Source of the DNA: a virus
Taxonomy: Duplodnaviria > Heunggongvirae > Uroviricota > Caudoviricetes
IMG/VR virus record: IMGVR_UViG_2541047802_000012
Coordinates: 1 to 17,300 of that record
Direction: 5' to 3' (one strand)
Length of the DNA stretch: 17,300 nt
Below, one piece after another: positions 8,999 to 17,300 of this stretch. The first letter of the stretch is position 1. Each line of letters starts with the position of its first letter. A program made the position numbers and the translations under genes. The notes under the pieces are model-generated. The model was given only the letters and a program-made list of their open reading frames with translations. It was not told the origin of the DNA and ran no database searches.

Positions 8999-9016
8999 TG
9001 AAAAACGTTTTATGTG

Positions 9017-9040
9017 AAACCGCCTCCGGGCGGTTTTGTC
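9017..9040 (+). terminator. hairpin (AAACCGCC-TCCG-GGCGGTTT) with a short interrupted T-tract between I and J; weak or partial terminator, or an mRNA structure
   Basis: Inverted repeat 9018-9024 / 9029-9035 read directly; the downstream TTGTCGTTT is only moderately U-rich. Confidence 0.3.
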
Positions 9041-9058
9041 GTTTATGGAGCGTTAGGA

Positions 9059-12000
9059 ATGGGTAAAGGCAGCAGTAAGGGGCATACTCCGCGCGAAGCG
9101 AAGGACAACCTGAAATCCACGCAGTTGCTGAGCGTGATAGACGCCATCAGTGAAGGGCCGATTGAAGGTCCGGTGGACGGATTAAAAAGTGTGCTGCTGA
9201 ACAGTACGCCAGTGCTGGACAGTGAGGGGAATACCAATATCTCCGGTGTCACGGTGGTTTTCCGGGCAGGTGAGCAGGAGCAGACACCGCCGGAGGGATT
9301 TGAATCCTCCGGCTCCGAGACGGTGCTGGGTACGGAAGTGAAGTACGACACGCCGATTACCCGGACCATCACGTCTGCAAACATCGACCGTCTGCGCTTT
9401 ACCTTCGGTGTGCAGGCACTGGTGGAAACCACCTCAAAGGGGGACCGGAATCCGTCGGAAGTCCGCCTGCTGGTTCAGATACAGCGTAATGGTGGCTGGG
9501 TGACGGAAAAAGACATCACCATTAAAGGCAAAACCACCTCACAGTATCTGGCATCGGTGGTGGTGGGTAACCTGCCGCCGCGCCCGTTCAATATCCGGAT
9601 GCGCAGGATGACGCCGGACAGCACCACAGACCAGCTGCAGAACAAAACGCTCTGGTCGTCATACACCGAAATCATCGATGTGAAACAGTGCTACCCGAAC
9701 ACGGCACTGGTCGGCGTACAGGTGGATTCGGAGCAGTTCGGCAGCCAGCAGGTGAGCCGTAATTATCATCTGCGCGGGCGTATTCTGCAGGTGCCGTCGA
9801 ACTATAACCCGCAGACGCGGCAATACAGCGGTATCTGGGACGGAACGTTTAAGCCGGCATACAGCAACAACATGGCCTGGTGTCTGTGGGATATGCTGAC
9901 CCACCCGCGCTACGGCATGGGGAAACGTCTTGGTGCGGCGGATGTGGACAAATGGGCGCTGTATGTCATCGGCCAGTACTGCGACCAGTCGGTGCCGGAC
10001 GGCTTTGGCGGCACGGAGCCGCGCATTACCTGTAATGCGTACCTGACCACACAGCGTAAGGCGTGGGATGTGCTCAGTGATTTCTGCTCGGCGATGCGCT
10101 GTATGCCGGTATGGAACGGGCAGACGCTGACGTTCGTGCAGGACCGACCATCAGATAAGGTGTGGACCTATAACCGCAGTAATGTGGTGATGCCGGATGA
10201 TGGCGCGCCGTTCCGCTACAGCTTCAGCGCCCTGAAAGACCGCCATAATGCCGTTGAGGTGAACTGGATTGACCCGGATAACGGCTGGGAGACGGCAACA
10301 GAGCTTGTGGAGGACACGCAGGCCATTGCCCGTTACGGTCGTAACGTCACGAAGATGGATGCTTTTGGCTGTACCAGCCGGGGGCAGGCACACCGCGCCG
10401 GGCTGTGGCTGATTAAAACAGAACTGCTGGAAACGCAGACCGTGGACTTCAGCGTGGGTGCCGAAGGGCTTCGCCATGTGCCGGGTGATGTTATTGAAAT
10501 CTGCGATGATGACTATGCGGGGATCAGCATCGGCGGGCGCGTGCTGGCTGTGAACAGCCAGACCCGGACGCTGACGCTCGACCGTGAAATCACGCTGCCA
10601 TCCTCCGGTACCACGCTGATAAGCCTGGTTGACGGTCAGGGTAATCCGGTCAGCGTGGAGGTCCAGTCCGTCACCGACGGCGTGAAGGTGAAAGTGAGCC
10701 GTGTTCCTGACGGCGTTGCTGAATACAGCGTGTGGGGGCTGAAGCTGCCGACGCTGCGCCAGCGCCTGTTCCGCTGCGTGAGTATCCGTGAGAACGACGA
10801 CGGCACGTATGCCATCACCGCCGTGCAGCATGTACCGGAAAAAGAGGCCATCGTGGATAACGGGGCGCACTTTGACGGCGACCAGAGCGGCACGGTGAAT
10901 GGTGTCACGCCGCCAGCGGTGCAGCACCTGACCGCCGAAGTCACCGCAGACAGCGGGGAATATCAGGTGCTGGCGCGCTGGGACACGCCGAAGGTGGTGA
11001 AGGGCGTGAGTTTCCTGCTTCGCCTGACCGTGGCAGCGGATGACGGCAGTGAGCTGCTGGTCAGCACGGCCCGGACGGCGGAAACCACATACCGCTTCAG
11101 GCAACTGGCGCTGGGGAACTACAGGCTGACAGTCCGGGCGGTAAATGCGTGGGGGCAGCAGGGCGATCCGGCGTCGGTATCGTTCCGGATTGCCGCACCG
11201 GCAGCACCGTCGAGGATTAAGCTGACGCCGGGCTATTTTCAGATAACCGCCACGCCGCATCTTGCGGTTTATGATCCGACGGTACAGTTTGAGTTCTGGT
11301 TCTCGGAAAAGCGGATTGCGGATATCAGGCAGGTTGAAACCACAGCCCGCTATCTTGGCACGGCGCTGTACTGGATAGCTGCCAGTATCAATATCAAGCC
11401 GGGCCATGATTATTATTTTTACGTTCGCAGTGTGAACACAGTCGGCAAATCGGCATTCATGGAGGCTGTCGGTCGGGCGAGCGATGATGCGGAAGGTTAC
11501 CTGGATTTTTTCAAAGGAGAAATCGGGAAAACACATCTGGCCCAGGAGCTGTGGACGCAGATTGATAACGGTCAGCTTGCGCCGGACCTGGCTGAAATCA
11601 GGACGTCCATTACGAATGTCAGCAATGAAATCACGCAGACCGTCAATAAAAAACTGGAAAATCAGAGTGCGGCAATCCAGCAGATACAGAAAGTTCAGGT
11701 TGATACAAATAATAACCTGAACAGCATGTGGGCTGTGAAGCTGCAGCAGATGCAGGACGGACGCCTTTATATCGCGGGTATTGGTGCCGGTATTGAGAAC
11801 ACCCCCGACGGTATGCAGAGTCAGGTGCTGCTGGCGGCAGACAGGATTGCGATGATTAATCCTGCGAATGGCAACACAAAGCCGATGTTTGTTGGGCAGG
11901 GCGATCAGATATTCATGAACGAAGTGTTCCTGAAATATCTGACGGCTCCCACCATTACCAGCGGCGGTAATCCTCCGGCATTTTCCCTGACACCGGACGG

Positions 12001-12538
12001 GCGGCTGACGGCGAAAAATGCCGATATCAGCGGTAACGTGAATGCGAACTCCGGGACGCTCAACAACGTCACGATTAACGAGAACTGCCGGGTTCTGGGA
12101 AAACTGTCCGCGAACCAGATTGAAGGCGATCTCGTTAAAACAGTGGGCAAAGCTTTCCCCCGGGACTCCCGTGCACCGGAACGGTGGCCATCAGGGACCA
12201 TTACCGTCAGGATTTATGACGATCAGCCGTTTGACCGGCAGATTGTTATTCCGGCGGTGGCATTCAGCGGCGCTAAACATGAGAAAGAGCATACTGATAT
12301 TTACTCCTCATGCCGTCTGATAGTGCGGAAAAACGGTGCTGAAATTTATAACCGTACCGCGCTGGATAATACGCTGATTTACAGTGGCGTTATTGATATG
12401 CCTGCCGGTCACGGTCACATGACACTGGAGTTTTCGGTGTCAGCATGGCTGGTAAATAACTGGTATCCCACAGCAAGTATCAGCGATTTGCTGGTTGTGG
12501 TGATGAAGAAAGCCACTGCAGGCATCACGATTAGCTGA
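9059..12538 (+). CDS. J: tail tip central fibre / host specificity protein J, with divergent C-terminal receptor-binding region
   Basis: From [54 protein letters not shown] onward it follows lambda gpJ closely for roughly 800 residues, including the FN3-like region ([27 protein letters not shown]). The last ~330 aa diverge. The ORF track's 9014 start is a GTG extension running through the hairpin. Confidence 0.9.
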
Positions 12539-12556: not shown

Positions 12557-12584
12557 GGGCGCCAGAAATGGCGCCTTTTTTATT
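12557..12584 (+). terminator. intrinsic terminator after J (palindromic stem GGCGCC-AGAAAT-GGCGCC then TTTTTTATT)
   Basis: Perfect 6-bp GC stem at 12558-12563 / 12570-12575 followed by a T-run at 12576-12584. Confidence 0.6.
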
Positions 12585-12605: not shown

Positions 12606-13205
12606 ATGCGTACATTATGTGCTGTTATTTTGTCCGCAGTAGTCTGGCAGGTCGCCGCTGCTACGCCAGCGAGTGCAGCAGAACATCAGTCCACGCTGAG
12701 CGCGGGGTATCTCCATGCCTCGACGAACGTTCCCGGTAGTGATGATCTGAACGGGATTAACGTGAAATACCGTTATGAGTTTACGGACATGCTGGGTGTT
12801 GTGACGTCATTCAGTTATGCCAATGCCAAAGATGAGCAAAAAACGCATTACAGCGATACCCGCTGGCATGAAGATTCAGTGCGTAACCGCTGGTTCAGCG
12901 TGATGGCGGGGCCGTCTGTGCGCGTGAATGAATGGTTCAGCGCGTATGCGATGGCGGGTATGGCTTACAGCCGTGTTTCGACTTTCTCCGGAGATTATAT
13001 CCGCGTAACTGACAACAAGGGGAAAACGCACGATGTGCTGACCGGAAGTGATGACGGTCGCCACAGCAACACGTCTCTGGCGTGGGGGGCTGGCGTGCAG
13101 TTTAACCCGACCGAATCCGTGGCCATTGACCTTGCTTATGAAGGTTCCGGCAGTGGCGACTGGCGCACTGACGGTTTCATCGTGGGTGTCGGTTATAAAT
13201 TCTGA
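12606..13205 (+). CDS. lom: Lom-like outer membrane beta-barrel protein (Ail/Lom/PagC family), with signal peptide
   Basis: N-terminal signal peptide MRTLCAVILSAVVWQVAAATPASA. The C-terminal IDLAYEGSGSGDWRTDGFIVGVGYKF is identical to the lambda Lom C-terminus as I recall it, and GINVKYRYE matches the Ail/Lom family. GAGAGG Shine-Dalgarno upstream of ATG 12606. Confidence 0.85.
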   Translation: MRTLCAVILSAVVWQVAAATPASAAEHQSTLSAGYLHASTNVPGSDDLNGINVKYRYEFTDMLGVVTSFSYANAKDEQKTHYSDTRWHEDSVRNRWFSVMAGPSVRVNEWFSAYAMAGMAYSRVSTFSGDYIRVTDNKGKTHDVLTGSDDGRHSNTSLAWGAGVQFNPTESVAIDLAYEGSGSGDWRTDGFIVGVGYKF

Positions 13206-13231: not shown

Positions 13232-13258
13232 AGCCCGCCGGTTCAGGCGGGCTTTTTT
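13232..13258 (+). terminator. intrinsic terminator after lom (AGCCCGCC-GGTTCA-GGCGGGCT then T6)
   Basis: 8-bp stem at 13232-13239 / 13246-13253 followed by TTTTTT; read directly. Confidence 0.65.
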
Positions 13259-13269
13259 GTGGAGTGGAT

Positions 13270-15648
13270 ATGGCAGCAGTAAAAATCTCAGGTGTGCTGA
13301 AAGATGGTGCGGGAAAACCAATACAGAACTGCACTATTCAACTGAAGGCAAAGCGTAACAGCACCACGGTACTGGTGAACACGGTGGCCTCTGAAAATCC
13401 GGATGAAGCCGGACGTTACAGCATGGATGTTGAGTATGGCCAGTACAGCGTCACCCTGCTGGTTGAAGGTTTTCCGCCTTCACATGCCGGGACCATTACC
13501 GTCTATGAAGGTTCCAGACCAGGTACGCTGAATGATTTTCTCGGTGCCATGACGGAAGATGATGTCATGCCGGAGGCATTGCGTCGTTTTGAGGCAATGG
13601 TGGAAGAAGTGGCACGCAACGCCGAAGCCGCCTCTCAGAGCGCAGCGGCGGCAAAGAAATCCGAAACTGCAGCGGCATCATCAAAGAACGCGGCGAAAAC
13701 CTCAGAAACGAATGCAGCTAATAGTGCACAGGCGGCAGCGACCTCAAAGACTGCATCGGCAAACTACGCGACAGCAGCCAAAAAATCAGAAACCAACGCG
13801 AAAAATAGCGAGACAGCCGCAAAGACGAGCGAAACCAACGCAAAGTCCAGCCAGACGGCAGCGAAGACCAGCGAAACGAATGCTAAAGCCAGTGAAACTG
13901 CAGCAAAAAACAGCCAGGTTTCAGCAGCCCAAAGCGAGAGTGCCGCTGCCGGTTCTGCGACTTCAGCTGCCGGATCAGCAACTGCTGCGGCTAACAGCCA
14001 GAAAGCTGCGAAGACGAGTGAAACTAACGCAAAGTCCAGCCAGACGGCAGCGAAGACCAGCGAAACGAATGCCAAAGCCAGTGAAACTGCGGCGAAAAGC
14101 AGTCAGGATGCAGCGGCCCAAAGCGAGAGTGCCGCAGCCAGTTCTGCAAGCGCGGCGGCTGCTTCTGCTACTGCATCAGCTAACAGTCAAAAAGCAGCAA
14201 AAACCAGTGAAACTAACGCAAAGGCGAGCGAAACAAAAGCAGCAGCCAGCGAGACAGAAGCAACGTCAGCCGCAACAAGAGCAGAGAATGCAGCCCGGAT
14301 TGCAGAAGATGCCGCTGATCCTGCTTCTGTCCCTCCGCTTCCTGATATCTGGCTACCCTTGAATGATTCTCTGGAAGCGATAACAGGGTATGCGCCGGGG
14401 TATAAAACAATAACCATCGGCAGCGATGAAATCACTGTGCCAGTTAATGGCATATGCCAATTTAGCCGGGCTTCATCTGCAACGTATATTGATAAGTCCG
14501 GGCATATTACCGTGGCAGGTAATAACGTTCCTCGTTTTGAAAAATATGGTTTGCTGATAGAGAATCAGCGAACAAACATGTTCGTAAATAGTTTTAATCC
14601 TGATGCGTGGAATAAAAGCGGTGGTATATCTGTAACATCATCAACAGATGAATTTGAGTTTAAATATGGACGTTTCACGGTAGGAAGCGATATAGCAGGA
14701 ACGACAACAGGGAGAAATATATGCACAGTTGCTGGTAACAAAGGCATAGATGTGACTGGCGATGATCAGTACAGTAAAGGTCCGTATGTTACCGCGTCGT
14801 TCAGGGTAAGAAGTGATCTCAATGTTCGCGCACGTATCCGTTTTGAACGGTATAACTCGGAAGGATACACCTTCCTTTGCGACGCCTATTTGTCATTACA
14901 GACCCATGAACTACAAATTACTGGTGGCAATGCCCAGCTATTAACAGCAAACTTTGAAATCGACCCTGGTAGTGGATGGATATATTTTCAGGCAACACTG
15001 AAATGTCTGCCAGAATGGGGAATGGTTGGTACGCAGCTGCAAATTGCAGCCGACAGAGCTGTGGGAGCTTTTGCAACAGGTGACTGGATAGAAGTAACCA
15101 CCCCGCAATTCGAGTATGGTGCTTGTGCAACTTCCTTCATCATAACGACAACAGAGCCAGCGACTCGTGCATCAGATTTATGTAAATTTCCGCTGATGAA
15201 AAATATGTATACCATGCCTTTTACGTTCATGGTGGAAGTCCATAAAAACTGGTTTATTTCTCATAATGCTGCACCGCGTGTCATTGATTCAGAAAATCAC
15301 CAGTCCGGAGGCCCATTTATTATGGGGTTTGGTTCTTCTGGAACTATCAGTCAGGACGGTTATTCGTATTGCGATATAGGCGGGGCTAACCGACGTGTAT
15401 ATGAATCATGCGGAGTAAGGGATCTCGTTATGGGATTCAGGGTTAAGGCTGACGGCATGACATGCTCATTTGCAAATAAGCATATAAGCGCTGAAACAAA
15501 AACAGTATGGAAATATATTCGTGAAGCAGCCGTGATTCGTATCGGGGGGCAAACGACGACAGGATTACGACACCTTAATGGTCATATAAAAAACCTCCGT
15601 TTCTGGAACAGAGCATTGTCAGATACGCAGCTTAAGGAATACGTATAA
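13270..15648 (+). CDS. stf: side tail fibre protein, Stf-like: lambda-like N-terminal attachment domain, Ala/Ser/Thr-rich repeat shaft, lectin-like (ConA/LamG-type) C-terminal tip
   Basis: MAAVKISGVLKDGAGKPIQNCTIQLKAKRNSTTV...YSMDVEYGQYSV...GFPPSHAGTITVYE matches the lambda Stf N-terminus as I recall it, with GGAG 6 nt upstream of ATG 13270. The C-terminus ends ...GHIKNLRFWNRALSDTQLKEYV, which fits the characteristic terminal motif of LamG-like jelly-roll domains (G.IDEVRIYNRALS..EI). Confidence 0.85.
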   Translation: MAAVKISGVLKDGAGKPIQNCTIQLKAKRNSTTVLVNTVASENPDEAGRYSMDVEYGQYSVTLLVEGFPPSHAGTITVYEGSRPGTLNDFLGAMTEDDVMPEALRRFEAMVEEVARNAEAASQSAAAAKKSETAAASSKNAAKTSETNAANSAQAAATSKTASANYATAAKKSETNAKNSETAAKTSETNAKSSQTAAKTSETNAKASETAAKNSQVSAAQSESAAAGSATSAAGSATAAANSQKAAKTSETNAKSSQTAAKTSETNAKASETAAKSSQDAAAQSESAAASSASAAAASATASANSQKAAKTSETNAKASETKAAASETEATSAATRAENAARIAEDAADPASVPPLPDIWLPLNDSLEAITGYAPGYKTITIGSDEITVPVNGICQFSRASSATYIDKSGHITVAGNNVPRFEKYGLLIENQRTNMFVNSFNPDAWNKSGGISVTSSTDEFEFKYGRFTVGSDIAGTTTGRNICTVAGNKGIDVTGDDQYSKGPYVTASFRVRSDLNVRARIRFERYNSEGYTFLCDAYLSLQTHELQITGGNAQLLTANFEIDPGSGWIYFQATLKCLPEWGMVGTQLQIAADRAVGAFATGDWIEVTTPQFEYGACATSFIITTTEPATRASDLCKFPLMKNMYTMPFTFMVEVHKNWFISHNAAPRVIDSENHQSGGPFIMGFGSSGTISQDGYSYCDIGGANRRVYESCGVRDLVMGFRVKADGMTCSFANKHISAETKTVWKYIREAAVIRIGGQTTTGLRHLNGHIKNLRFWNRALSDTQLKEYV
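13650..14260 (+). repeat. in-frame tandem direct repeats inside stf (about 189-bp unit, two near-identical copies plus partial copies; encodes reiterated K-T/S-SETNAK-A/S-S-E/Q-T-AAK motifs)
   Basis: The string gcaaagtccagccagacggcagcgaagaccagcgaaacgaatgc recurs near 13840 and near 14029 (offset 189 bp) with flanking similarity; the protein shows the corresponding repeated motif. Confidence 0.7.
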
Positions 15649-15917
15649 TGCGAGATATAACATTACGATTCGATAACAGAGAACAGTTTAACGCAATTGT
15701 ATATGACAGTGGCCTGTTCAGTCTTGAAGAAGAAAACGGGGTTCTTGTTGATGTTATTGGCTGCATTATCGATTACGAGGAGCCAGAAAACGAAAGATGT
15801 ACAGGCATTGATCGCGGTGGTTTTTTCGTAAACATGAGGATTGTTGATAGCAGTAAAAACATATCTTCTTTAATGCCTTTCATTACGACAGATCAGCATG
15901 TAAGGACATGGGCTTAA
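15648..15917 (+). CDS. hypothetical 89-aa acidic protein, first gene of a low-GC cassette
   Basis: ATG 15648 overlaps the stf stop (TAATG), with AAGGAA upstream. Visibly AT-rich relative to the tail genes. No family recognised. Confidence 0.5.
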   Translation: MRDITLRFDNREQFNAIVYDSGLFSLEEENGVLVDVIGCIIDYEEPENERCTGIDRGGFFVNMRIVDSSKNISSLMPFITTDQHVRTWA

Positions 15918-15929
15918 TGGAGTAAGACA

Positions 15930-16970
15930 ATGGTTACAAAAACAGTAATTCCTGATGACATCAAAACGCTAAAATCCGATGTTAGTAAACTAAAAACTGA
16001 TCAAGGAAGCTATGCAACAAAATCATATGTAGACAATAAAACAACATGGAATAGTTATTGCAATGTAATCTATGATCAAAAGGCATTGCCGACCACTGGA
16101 ACTATATTTAGCGGTAAGATTCACTTGTCAAATAAGACAGGAGAAACCGAAAACGCTTATAGTGAGATGTACACCAGAAAAAATATTGACGGTACAAAAG
16201 ATACAATGACAAGGATTGTCACACACAATGGAACAAAAGGTATCTTTTGGGATTTTAGCGATCTTTACGGCGGAACATTAATTTTTCCAGGCAGTGATGG
16301 TTACCTTAAGATGGGGAACTGTCTCATGTCGTATGGTGTGCGGGGAAGTAACGCGCTTATTAAGTTTGACTGCACAGACACATTACAAATCAAATATGCC
16401 AATCATGGGTCAACCATGACATTAAACACACAGGGAACCGCTTATGCTGGTGTTACTGCTCAATTGTGGGGCAACTCCAGCCGTCCTGTTGTTTATGAAG
16501 TCGGTGTTGATGGTGGCGCTTATATGTTCTATGCGCAGAAAAATACCGATAACACCTATATGTTAAGCGTTAATGGTGCATGTCATGCCACCGCATTTAA
16601 CCAGCATTCCGACCGGGATCTGAAAGACAACATTCAGGTGATCGATAATGCAACCGACCGCATCCGTAAAATGAACGGCTATACATACACGCTTAAAGAA
16701 AACGGTATGCCCTATGCTGGTGTCATTGCACAGGAAGCTCTGGAAGCAATCCCAGAAGTTGTAGGTTCCGCAATGAAATATCAGGACGGTGCAAGCGGAT
16801 CGGAAGGTGAAGAAGGTGAACGTTATTACACAGTAGATTATTCTGGTGTTACTGGCTTGCTTGTTCAGGTAGCCAGAGAGTCAGACGACAGAATAACAGC
16901 ACTGGAAGAAGAAAACGCAGAATTAAGACAAAGATTATCTGCAATTGAGGCGGCGCTTGCGTCTAAATAA
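15930..16970 (+). CDS. tail-fibre-like protein with C-terminal intramolecular chaperone / autoproteolysis domain (peptidase S74-type)
   Basis: GGAG 7 nt upstream of ATG 15930. The C-terminal ~120 aa (HSDRDLKDNIQVID...YTYTLKENG...AGVIAQEALEAIPEVV...YTVDYSGVTGLLVQ...ALEEENAELRQRL) matches the conserved S74 chaperone-of-endosialidase pattern, including the Ser-x4-Lys dyad spacing (Ser codon 16608-16610, Lys codon 16623-16625). Confidence 0.7.
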   Translation: MVTKTVIPDDIKTLKSDVSKLKTDQGSYATKSYVDNKTTWNSYCNVIYDQKALPTTGTIFSGKIHLSNKTGETENAYSEMYTRKNIDGTKDTMTRIVTHNGTKGIFWDFSDLYGGTLIFPGSDGYLKMGNCLMSYGVRGSNALIKFDCTDTLQIKYANHGSTMTLNTQGTAYAGVTAQLWGNSSRPVVYEVGVDGGAYMFYAQKNTDNTYMLSVNGACHATAFNQHSDRDLKDNIQVIDNATDRIRKMNGYTYTLKENGMPYAGVIAQEALEAIPEVVGSAMKYQDGASGSEGEEGERYYTVDYSGVTGLLVQVARESDDRITALEEENAELRQRLSAIEAALASK

Positions 16971-16976
16971 TATCAA

Positions 16977-16996
16977 GGGGCCGAGCGCCCCGTTTT
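16977..16996 (+). terminator. terminator-like hairpin (GGGGC-CGAGC-GCCCC then G-TTTT-ATT) after the S74-domain gene
   Basis: 5-bp all-GC stem at 16977-16981 / 16987-16991 followed by a T-tract; read directly. Confidence 0.45.
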
Positions 16997-17012
16997 ATTG
17001 GGTAGGATGAAA

Positions 17013-17300
17013 ATGGATATAACACCTTTCCTTCATGCGCTTTGTGCTGTGGCTGCGCAGGTACTGGTTGGTTTTTTTACCGGGAACTGGGCTTACGGGG
17101 CGATAGCCGGTTGTACATTCTTCATTGCGCGGGAACACACCCAGGCAGAATATCGCTGGATTGAAATGTTCGGGCATGGCAAGCGGATTAACATGCCATG
17201 GTGGGGCGGTTTTGATCCGCGCGCGTGGGATGTGGCAAGCCTGATGGATTTTGCTGTGCCGGTGGTGGCGTGTCTGCTGATCTGGATGTTGATCCGTTAA
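17013..17300 (+). CDS. hypothetical small integral membrane protein (about 96 aa, three predicted hydrophobic helices)
   Basis: AGGA 6 nt upstream of ATG 17013 (the ORF track's TTG 16998 and ATG 17007 are alternatives). Three hydrophobic stretches (FLHALCAVAAQVLVGFF, WAYGAIAGCTFFIA, FAVPVVACLLIWMLI). Stop TAA at 17298-17300, the last bases of the window. Confidence 0.5.
   Translation: MDITPFLHALCAVAAQVLVGFFTGNWAYGAIAGCTFFIAREHTQAEYRWIEMFGHGKRINMPWWGGFDPRAWDVASLMDFAVPVVACLLIWMLIR

Follow-up and report, generated by a model that had tools for sequence, protein, structure and literature searches.

The fibre region of the window (the whole 17,300-nt stretch of Caudoviricetes DNA analyzed here) is a further copy of a fibre architecture that has already been described. 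The T5-like phages AKFV33 (ORF137/LtpA, ORF136, ORF135/LtpB) and Bas32 IrisVonRoten (Gp22, Gp23, Gp24) encode three genes homologous to stf, orf89 and orf346 of the window, in the same order. Compared with these phages, the Stf tip is 31-51% identical and the orf89 homologues are 31-36% identical, and their second fibre has an N-terminal peptide and an S74 end as in orf346. The window module differs in its carrier, a temperate lambdoid tail whose Stf has an N-terminus of the lambda type, and its second fibre has 346 aa and a single tip, whereas AKFV33 and Bas32 carry T-shaped dual-RBD fibres of 557-574 aa. The Stf homologue ORF137 of AKFV33 was identified as a virion protein by mass spectrometry, and ORF135 and ORF137 were named ltpB and ltpA (PMC3326045). 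The gel-band analysis identified only four proteins (PMC3326045), and a 10-kDa band would escape it. In Bas32, the distal RBP Gp24, homologous to orf346, was modelled as attached to Gp22, a proximal fibre from which its own galectin-like C-terminal domain protrudes (PMC11990801). The small protein encoded in the middle, the orf89 homologue, is given no role in either study (PMC11990801, PMC3326045).

A small coupled gene also lies right after the fibre gene in the lambda Stf-Tfa and T4 gp37-gp38 systems, and lambda Stf is homologous to the window Stf in its N-terminus and shaft. Tfa-type chaperones are modular, with tip-binding domains that co-vary with the fibre tip. In contrast to both systems, orf89 is not Tfa-like, the Stf tip is lectin-like, and orf89 does not co-vary with the receptor-binding tip. 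T4 also encodes small joint proteins, gp35 and gp36, between its half-fibre genes, and the gene order 34-35-36-37 mirrors the order of the proteins in the fibre. The likeness of orf89 to these joints is by analogy only, and orf89 persists without a distal fibre. The branched fibres of DT57C (LtfA/LtfB) and the anchor-branch RBPs with a short N-terminal docking peptide resemble the window in that the second fibre, like orf346, has no virion anchor of its own; there the second RBP is held through the first fibre (PMC4728585, PMC10713586). In the annotations seen, and unlike in the window, no homologue of orf89 separates ltfA from ltfB in DT57C. Over its first ~240 residues, the Stf tip is homologous to the head spike fibre Rcc01080 of RcGTA (PDB 6TB9); in Stf the domain instead lies at the end of a tail fibre, with a LamG-like domain after it and orf89 as a partner. 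We lean slightly towards reading the fibre region as a modular two-protein lateral (side) tail fibre of known kind.

Layout and composition of the fibre region

The region comprises three genes, their signals and a conserved right flank:

13264-15648, plus strand: stf, 794 aa
13264-14445, plus strand: N-terminal virion-anchor domain and Ala/Ser/Thr-rich repeat shaft of Stf (phage_tail_N and lambda Stf homology)
14446-15648, plus strand: distal tip of Stf, last ~400 aa, RcGTA head-spike-fibre-like plus ConA/LamG-like lectin domain (profile matches)
15648-15917, plus strand: orf89, 89 aa, start overlapping the stf stop as TAATG; small acidic protein of PHROG 1361
15919-15922, plus strand: Shine-Dalgarno sequence GGAG of orf346, 7 nt before the ATG at 15930 (sequence reading)
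15930-16970, plus strand: orf346, 346 aa, second short fibre
15930-15995, plus strand: orf346 aa 1-22, N-terminal peptide MVTKTVIPDDIKTLK..., proposed docking peptide (conserved motif)
15996-16607, plus strand: orf346 aa 23-226, short coiled-coil and receptor-binding body (PHROG 4563 and 19752 matches)
16608-16970, plus strand: C-terminal intramolecular chaperone domain (Peptidase_S74) of orf346 from S227, ...FNQH/SDRDLKDNI (Pfam PF13884)
16977-16999, plus strand: terminator-like hairpin GGGGCCGAGCGCCCC followed by the T run GTTTTATT (terminator scan), belonging to the orf346 indel
17010-17300, plus strand: 96-aa predicted membrane protein, right flank of the variable fibre region (PHROG 1443, unknown function, E 1e-57)

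The TAATG overlap confirms the translational coupling of orf89 to stf proposed in the first-pass annotation, and AAGGA lies ~9 nt upstream of the orf89 start. The separate Shine-Dalgarno sequence and terminator-like hairpin that had been assigned to orf346 are also present. The right-flank ORF is 84-95% identical at the nucleotide level in lambdoids, whether or not they carry a second fibre.

GC content of the window falls from 0.55 at 13400-14400 to 0.41-0.46 at 14400-15600 and 0.355-0.38 at 15600-16400. The lowest GC of the whole window, 0.355-0.38, is in the orf346 body; the S74 part of orf346 has a GC of 0.46. GC3 per gene follows the same course, with 0.67 for J, 0.58 for lom, 0.47 for the N-terminal part of stf, 0.37 for its tip, 0.36 for orf89, 0.36-0.37 for orf346 and 0.57 for the next ORF (17010-17300). 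GC3 is thus ~0.36 across 14446-16970 as against 0.57-0.67 in the flanks, and these shifts define a low-GC island spanning ~14446-16970, close to the AT-rich region that was originally placed from the stf tip at about 14300.

Stf combines a conserved anchor with an exchangeable tip. Its N-terminus matches Pfam phage_tail_N (aa 5-134, E 5e-67), and N-terminus and shaft are 61% identical to lambda Stf (orf-401) over 285 aa. Tandem repeats with periods of 21, 42 and 189 occur in stf at 13789-14284. The N-terminal part is 86-94% identical at the nucleotide level in other lambdoids that bear different tips.

The distal tip is predicted to be lectin-like and not of the gp37/Tfa-dependent type. NCBIfam GTA_spike_fiber (NF048003) matches aa 431-636 with 47.9 bits (cut-off 36), and the tip profile aligns with Rcc01080 at E 4e-18 over the same ~240 residues named above. 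This suggests that the GTA-spike-like part may bind polysaccharide. All 16 of 16 tip family members match Laminin_G_3, the best at E 4e-9; the score of the window copy, 19.4 bits (E 1e-3), stays below the cut-off of 27.6. A conserved C-terminal motif, IRIGGQT..G.RHL.GH.(R/K)N.R.W...L.D.Q..E, marks the end of the lectin domain. The tip class is present in 213 phage records, from temperate as well as virulent phages.

orf89 and the Stf tip class

orf89 encodes an acidic protein, as first noted (pI 4.4; 16 D+E versus 8 K+R), that matches the PHROG 1361 profile over its full length (E 9.6e-31, aa 1-89 on positions 1-92 of 92). The first-pass annotation recognised no family for it. The protein is in fact catalogued, in a family of ~90-aa proteins annotated 'unknown function', and the claim stands only as to the missing function; all 360 clusters of the family at 90% identity are named 'hypothetical'. 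Pfam gave no match at E <= 0.1 (Caudo_TAP PF02413 included) and NCBIfam gave none, and an hhalign comparison of the family profile (52 sequences) with lambda Tfa returned a probability of 0.07% (E 0.69), in agreement with the earlier statement that orf89 is unrelated to Tfa. The AF2 model (pLDDT 70) has the order beta-alpha-beta-beta-alpha, and neither sequence nor fold resembles any known fibre chaperone.

Single-sequence protein searches with orf89, word-indexed as well as exhaustive, returned almost only fragments. An exhaustive search for natural fusions of orf89 to either fibre gave six matches, none of them genuine. P0005 was rejected as a fusion, being a frameshifted read across the stf end and orf89, and the long repeat proteins P0007 and P0008 were rejected as relatives, their matches being spurious and due to low complexity or Ig repeats. 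No family member turned up in scans of species-representative genomes, and an IMG/VR search found only ten loci. Literature searches under phage names (HannyBb, PhiR11_1 and others) found nothing, and the module is not mentioned in the lambda-engineering preprint or the Hf4s preprint.

An orf89 homologue lies directly 3′ of a tip-bearing fibre gene in all 24 loci compared, with a 1- or 4-nt overlap or zero spacer. The loci represent six phage groups: lambdoids, T5-like phages (AKFV33, Bas32), T1-like phages (tonn), Seuratvirus (VogelGryff), Dhillonvirus (KarlBarth) and the rV5-like myovirus LL12. Every PHROG 1361 member is in this tip-fibre context in the loci read. The first-pass annotation had described orf89 and orf346 as a two-gene cassette appended in the slot of a tfa gene, and had named fixed synteny of both genes in all relatives beforehand as one observation that would speak against it. 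Fixed synteny with the tip is what orf89 displays (24/24), loci without a second fibre included. A Tfa is not expected after this stf in any case, because the tip is not of the gp37/Tfa-dependent type. Judged from gene order, orf89 is a constant, uncharacterised partner of one Stf tip class in many E. coli phages.

The gene is kept without a second fibre in five lambdoid loci and in LL12, and alleles from fibre-less loci are under purifying selection (dN/dS = 0.22-0.34). The complete genome of Lambda_2E9 contains an intact orf89, and the docking motif is absent from it in every frame. Alleles of orf89 that are 75-94% identical pair with tips that are 40-60% identical in the GTA-like part and 22-34% in the LamG core. 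Identity of orf89 correlates with that of the final 35 aa of Stf (rho 0.65) and of the second-fibre N-terminus (rho 0.41), a co-variation confounded by physical linkage since all three lie within 15 nt.

Such a gene could encode a non-structural, Stf-specific assembly chaperone, an analogue and not a homologue of Tfa, gp38 or gp57A, that assists folding of the lectin-type tip, or of the Stf trimer at its C-terminal end, and is then released, with the second fibre docking directly on Stf. Slot and translational coupling are typical of fibre chaperone genes, orf89 is strictly tied to one tip class, selection retains it where the second fibre is absent, and the published Bas32 model puts Gp24 on Gp22 and leaves Gp23 without a role. 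However, sequence variation in orf89 does not mirror that of the variable receptor-binding parts of the tip, as it does in the tip-binding domains of Tfa-type chaperones, and orf89 is unlike any of the known fibre chaperones. ConA/LamG-like jelly rolls do not, as a rule, depend on a dedicated chaperone. We regard the chaperone role as possible, if on the doubtful side.

The second fibre and its exchange

orf346 is a short fibre that ends in an intramolecular chaperone of the Peptidase_S74 type, which bears out its initial description as fibre-like. It matches PHROG 4563 'tail fiber' over its full length, and residues ~115-340 also recur as the C-terminal end of side tail fibres made of one polypeptide, for example in mEp460. 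The PF13884 match (E 5e-14, 52.8 bits, cut-off 22) places aa 227-278 on profile positions 1-57 of 58, and the conserved Ser of the S74 domain is present at the domain start (H226/S227). Residues 215-327 resemble the long tail fibre distal subunit of PDB 6F45 (E 1e-3).

Second fibres are present in 18 of the 24 loci and are highly variable. They start 8-13 nt past orf89 in all 18 cases and have the motif M..T.T.IP.DI..LK in common, their bodies otherwise being down to 18-26% identical. For the homologous fibre bodies of Kuravirus, Wifcevirus and DT57C LtfA, the alignment begins no earlier than aa 27-49 (aa 27 in LtfA); these fibres lack the proposed docking peptide, which is found only in orf89 contexts.

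The peptide's restriction to these contexts, together with the gene order and the narrow 8-13-nt gap, is what would be expected if orf89 were a pure adaptor with the sole job of bridging Stf to the second fibre, like the small adaptors of multi-tailspike phages. We consider this improbable because orf89 persists in fibre-less loci: it is intact and under purifying selection in phages without a second fibre, the complete Lambda_2E9 included, and LL12 has an orf89 homologue that no second fibre follows.

The junctions of related loci delimit the exchange units. Tritos and L016 have the N-terminal part of stf and 15911-17291 in common with the window and differ in tip and orf89. In PhiR47_1, stf and orf89 are 96% alike, and the second fibre diverges after ~100 nt. 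Where a second fibre is missing, homology picks up again at 17004-17012, just past the hairpin. These mosaic junctions rule out a single mobile cassette of orf89 plus orf346. orf89 travels with the Stf tip and not with orf346, and the sole indel is orf346 with its terminator (~15918-17003). The indel proposed for the cassette therefore holds for orf346 and its terminator and fails for orf89, which is exchanged with the tip. An 80% nucleotide-identical copy of orf346 occurs in the virulent Seuratvirus JenP1, and 787 of 5426 complete E. coli genomes contain matches to parts of the cassette. Because the mosaic junctions coincide with the low-GC region and JenP1 carries a copy of orf346, the comparison supports the original suggestion that this region is horizontally exchanged receptor-recognition DNA.

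A proposed joint between the two fibres

That orf89 is unrelated to the virion, a moron, anti-defence gene or regulator placed by chance after stf, is very improbable: it has no recognisable domain and lies inside the low-GC island, but six unrelated lineages, with strictly virulent phages and a myovirus among them, preserve its position and coupling, the tip class ahead of it is always the same and moves with it in exchanges, and the PHROG 1361 members in the loci read are all in tip-fibre context.

In the two-protein side fibre that we favour, Stf would be anchored to the tail through its lambda-like N-terminus and end distally in a lectin-type tip (GTA-head-spike-fibre-like plus ConA/LamG-like). 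orf89 would be the dedicated partner of this tip class, made in a fixed ratio with Stf by the start/stop overlap, and would act at the conserved distal end of Stf and not on the variable receptor-binding surfaces. orf346 would be an optional, exchangeable second short fibre that trimerises with the help of its S74 chaperone, which is presumably cut off after H226 once the trimer has formed. We infer that orf89 binds the Stf end and that the second-fibre peptide docks there; the T.IP.DI..LK peptide would attach to a conserved joint of Stf C-terminus and orf89 and thereby add a second receptor specificity. In favour of this reading, the proposed joint stays conserved where the fibre parts on either side of it diverge; the lack of any genuine fusion of orf89 to one of the fibres counts against it.

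Whether orf89 stays in the virion as a cap or connector is close to an even call, tilting just against, and is somewhat likelier than its release as an assembly chaperone. A broader proposal is more tentative still: PHROG 1361 may be a previously unrecognised class of fibre joint, a ~10-kDa protein capping and completing the conserved distal end of lectin-tipped fibres of the Stf type and forming a universal T.IP.DI..LK socket, possibly via strand complementation of an incomplete ferredoxin-like sheet, into which unrelated second fibres could be plugged across at least six lineages.

The module is common, occurring in temperate and virulent phages and in many E. coli genomes. If orf89 and the ~20-residue peptide do form a portable joint, this would explain two glycan specificities in one fibre locus, and new receptor-binding fibres could be grafted at a defined junction onto tails of the lambda, T5 or T1 type.

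Layout and composition of the fibre region

The window comes from a lambdoid prophage or phage, of which it is the late, tail end, and carries the following features.

9014-12538, J
12606-13205, lom (Ail_Lom, E 5e-123)
13264-15648, stf, the side tail fibre gene (N-terminus Pfam phage_tail_N, E 5e-67)
15648-15917, orf89, overlapping the stf stop codon (TAATG), with AAGGA about 9 nt upstream
15930-16970, orf346, with GGAG 7 nt 5' of its ATG
16977-16999, GC-rich hairpin followed by a T run (terminator scan)
17010-17300, 96-aa predicted membrane protein (PHROG 1443, unknown function)

The N-terminus of Stf is 61% identical to lambda Stf across 285 residues. The coordinates of orf89 and orf346, their TAATG coupling to stf and own Shine-Dalgarno sequence, respectively, and the 3' hairpin are all as the first-pass annotation described them, and the AT-rich shift that it noted is borne out by GC3: J has 0.67, lom 0.58 and the N-terminal part of stf 0.47, against 0.36-0.37 all along the stf tip, orf89 and orf346, and the value recovers to 0.57 in the ORF at 17010-17300. 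Such a low GC fits a gene pool in common with AT-richer virulent phages, of which AKFV33 (39% GC) is an example (PMC3326045).

Strong terminator-like hairpins (8-bp stems with T runs) lie on either side of lom at 12557-12576 and 13232-13253, an arrangement like that of a moron sitting between J and stf. The Stf shaft (13789-14284) contains tandem repeats with periods of 21, 42 and 189 nt and units of the AKTSETNAK type, with an AT skew of up to 0.56; the repeats also generate spurious long ORFs at 13559-14362 (+) and 13764-14075 (-).

The 96-aa membrane protein matched no Pfam or NCBIfam family. Its gene is 84-95% identical at the nucleotide level in lambdoids with or without a second fibre, and is the constant right flank of their variable fibre region. 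A role in lysogenic conversion or exclusion is possible. In Lambda_2E9 (compared loci L010/L024, 21756-25205), a sitABCD manganese/iron transporter operon adjoins the fibre module and membrane ORF on the downstream side.

Families of the Stf tip, orf89 and orf346

Over its last ~400 residues, Stf does not have a gp37/Tfa-type tip. The GTA head-spike-fibre domain is detected at residues 431-636 above its NCBIfam cut-off, and a profile of 16 tips matches Rcc01080, the head spike fibre of RcGTA (PDB 6TB9), with an E-value of 4e-18. Laminin_G_3 (Pfam) matches the C-terminal part of all 16 tips (best E 4e-9), the copy in the window being sub-threshold at 1e-3.

The orf89 product is acidic (pI 4.4) and matched no Pfam or NCBIfam family. 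PHROG 1361 (92 residues, unknown function) matches it over its full length (E 1e-30). As the first-pass annotation held, it is not Tfa: a 52-member profile of the orf89 family shows no similarity to lambda Tfa (hhalign probability 0.07%). One protein search hit, P0003 (64 aa), is identical to orf89 over residues 1-36 and unrelated thereafter; its NCBI name is 'CP4-44 prophage; predicted disrupted hemin or colicin receptor', and it looks like a truncated orf89 remnant with a transferred misannotation.

The second gene had been read as a fibre, and this is upheld by an end-to-end match of orf346 to PHROG 4563 ('tail fiber protein') and by a Peptidase_S74 intramolecular chaperone domain at residues 227-278 (52.8 bits, cut-off 22). 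Among solved sequences the closest is 6F45, the distal subunit of a phage long tail fibre (E 1e-3). The distal half of orf346 is also found at the C-terminal end of side tail fibres made of a single polypeptide, for example that of mEp460. Virulent phages have orf346 too: the copy in the Seuratvirus JenP1 has 80% nucleotide and 83.5% protein identity.

Conservation and exchange of the module

Relatives of orf89 were found by tblastn in 77 phage records, and the Stf tip in 213. We compared the window with 23 loci from six phage groups: lambdoids (PhiR11_1, PhiR47_1, Tritos, IdasGreatGrand, PhiR49_2, Lambda_2E9, mEp460_4F5), T5-like phages (AKFV33, IrisVonRoten/Bas32, L6jm, VSe12), T1-like tonn, Seuratvirus VogelGryff, Dhillonvirus KarlBarth and the rV5-like myovirus LL12. 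In all 24, an orf89-family gene lies immediately 3' of a fibre gene ending in this tip class, with a 1- or 4-nt overlap or zero spacer, and no relative compared has tfa at this position. The gene is thus a constant partner of this tip, rather than the oddity in a Tfa slot that it was first taken for.

The next gene is a second fibre in 18 loci, where it starts 8-13 nt downstream of orf89; in five lambdoid loci it is the 96-aa membrane-protein gene and in LL12 a baseplate-like gene. The second fibres span 224-586 aa with body identities down to 18-26%, and all 18 begin with M..T.T.IP.DI..LK. Three of their genes are split into two ORFs (PhiR47_1, locus L002, 5646-6686, 294+37 aa; VSe12, locus L018, 4289-5231, 64+277 aa; KarlBarth, locus L013, 5427-6306, 98+196 aa), a sign that sequenced isolates may often be able to do without the second fibre or be losing it.

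Three separate blocks emerge when the nucleotide sequences are compared with the window. Tritos and an IMG/VR contig (L016) have the N-terminal part of stf in common with it up to ~14234-14441, and 88-89.5% identity across 15911-17291 (orf346, terminator and membrane ORF); their tip and orf89 differ from the window's. PhiR47_1 and PhiR55_1 match stf and orf89 at 96-97%, and their second fibre diverges ~45-105 nt in. In loci without a second fibre, homology restarts at 17004-17012, right after the hairpin. The mosaic blocks therefore indicate that tip and orf89 travel together and that the true indel is orf346 with its terminator (~15918-17003). The copy of the module in the window is 94% identical to phage PhiR11_1. 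The proposed exchange of receptor-recognition DNA is supported by these blocks and by the JenP1 copy of orf346; the single appended cassette is not, as orf89 moves with the tip and orf346 with its terminator is alone the indel.

A proposed conserved joint and the role of orf89

Four constraints bear on the role of orf89. It is needed even where there is no second fibre: alleles of lambdoids lacking one have dN/dS of 0.22-0.34, and in deeper pairs synonymous sites are saturated with pN only 0.25. No docking motif, the proposed N-terminal attachment peptide of second fibres (T.IP.DI..LK), occurs in any frame of the complete Lambda_2E9 genome. Secondly, orf89 does not vary with those parts of the tip that are variable and presumably bind receptors, since alleles at 75-94% identity pair with tips at 40-60% (GTA-like part) and 22-34% (LamG core). 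Its identity correlates with that of the last 35 Stf residues (rho 0.65) and of the second-fibre N-terminus (rho 0.41), with physical linkage contributing to both values. Thirdly, the N-terminal 26-48 residues of second fibres are specific to the orf89 context; alignment to the homologous fibre bodies of Kuravirus, Wifcevirus and DT57C LtfA begins only at residue 27-49. Finally, stf and orf89 overlap at their stop and start codons, and fixed-ratio co-production is therefore expected.

Together these constraints point to a conserved joint, which would comprise the C-terminal strand of Stf, orf89 and the N-terminal peptide of the second fibre, with hypervariable binding domains on either side. 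On this evidence we favour a role for orf89 at the distal end of Stf. Our leading, still tentative reading is a cap or connector retained there, while an assembly factor that is released is a somewhat less probable possibility. A pure adaptor is improbable given the selection in loci without a second fibre, and a role outside the virion is very improbable. It is pure speculation that a partner might provide the fourth strand that the ferredoxin-like sheet of orf89 lacks. The rV5-like homologue LL12_040 (locus L012, 5197-5529; 110 aa, longer than orf89) is not followed by a second fibre and is changed at residues invariant elsewhere (DVIG to EVAG; GYFVNVRI to ELFYVNVLTL; C-terminal R.W absent); these losses may separate Stf-end residues from docking residues.

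The two-protein side-fibre architecture is already described. AKFV33 tail fibres are reported to comprise a pair of novel proteins: ORF137 (ltpA), which MS confirmed in the virion, and ORF135 (ltpB). The same paper does not discuss ORF136, the small protein encoded between them (PMC3326045). For IrisVonRoten (Bas32), Humolli et al. modelled a T-shaped Gp24 attached to the proximal fibre Gp22, whose galectin-like C-terminal domain protrudes and may serve as an additional receptor-binding domain, and assigned no role to the 92-residue Gp23 (PMC11990801). The proximal fibre is 'Gp23' in the text of that paper and 'Gp22' in its Fig 12B legend; the GenBank record gives the 796-aa fibre as bas32_0022 and the 92-aa orf89 homologue as bas32_0023. 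According to the BASEL paper, lateral fibres in these siphoviruses can consist of one polypeptide or of two or more proteins (PMC8594841). DT57C LtfA/LtfB likewise form a branched fibre, in which no orf89 homologue is annotated between the two genes. The window holds a new copy of a modular side fibre of the known two-protein kind, and the function of orf89, its small conserved middle protein, is of moderate interest, chiefly for fibre engineering.
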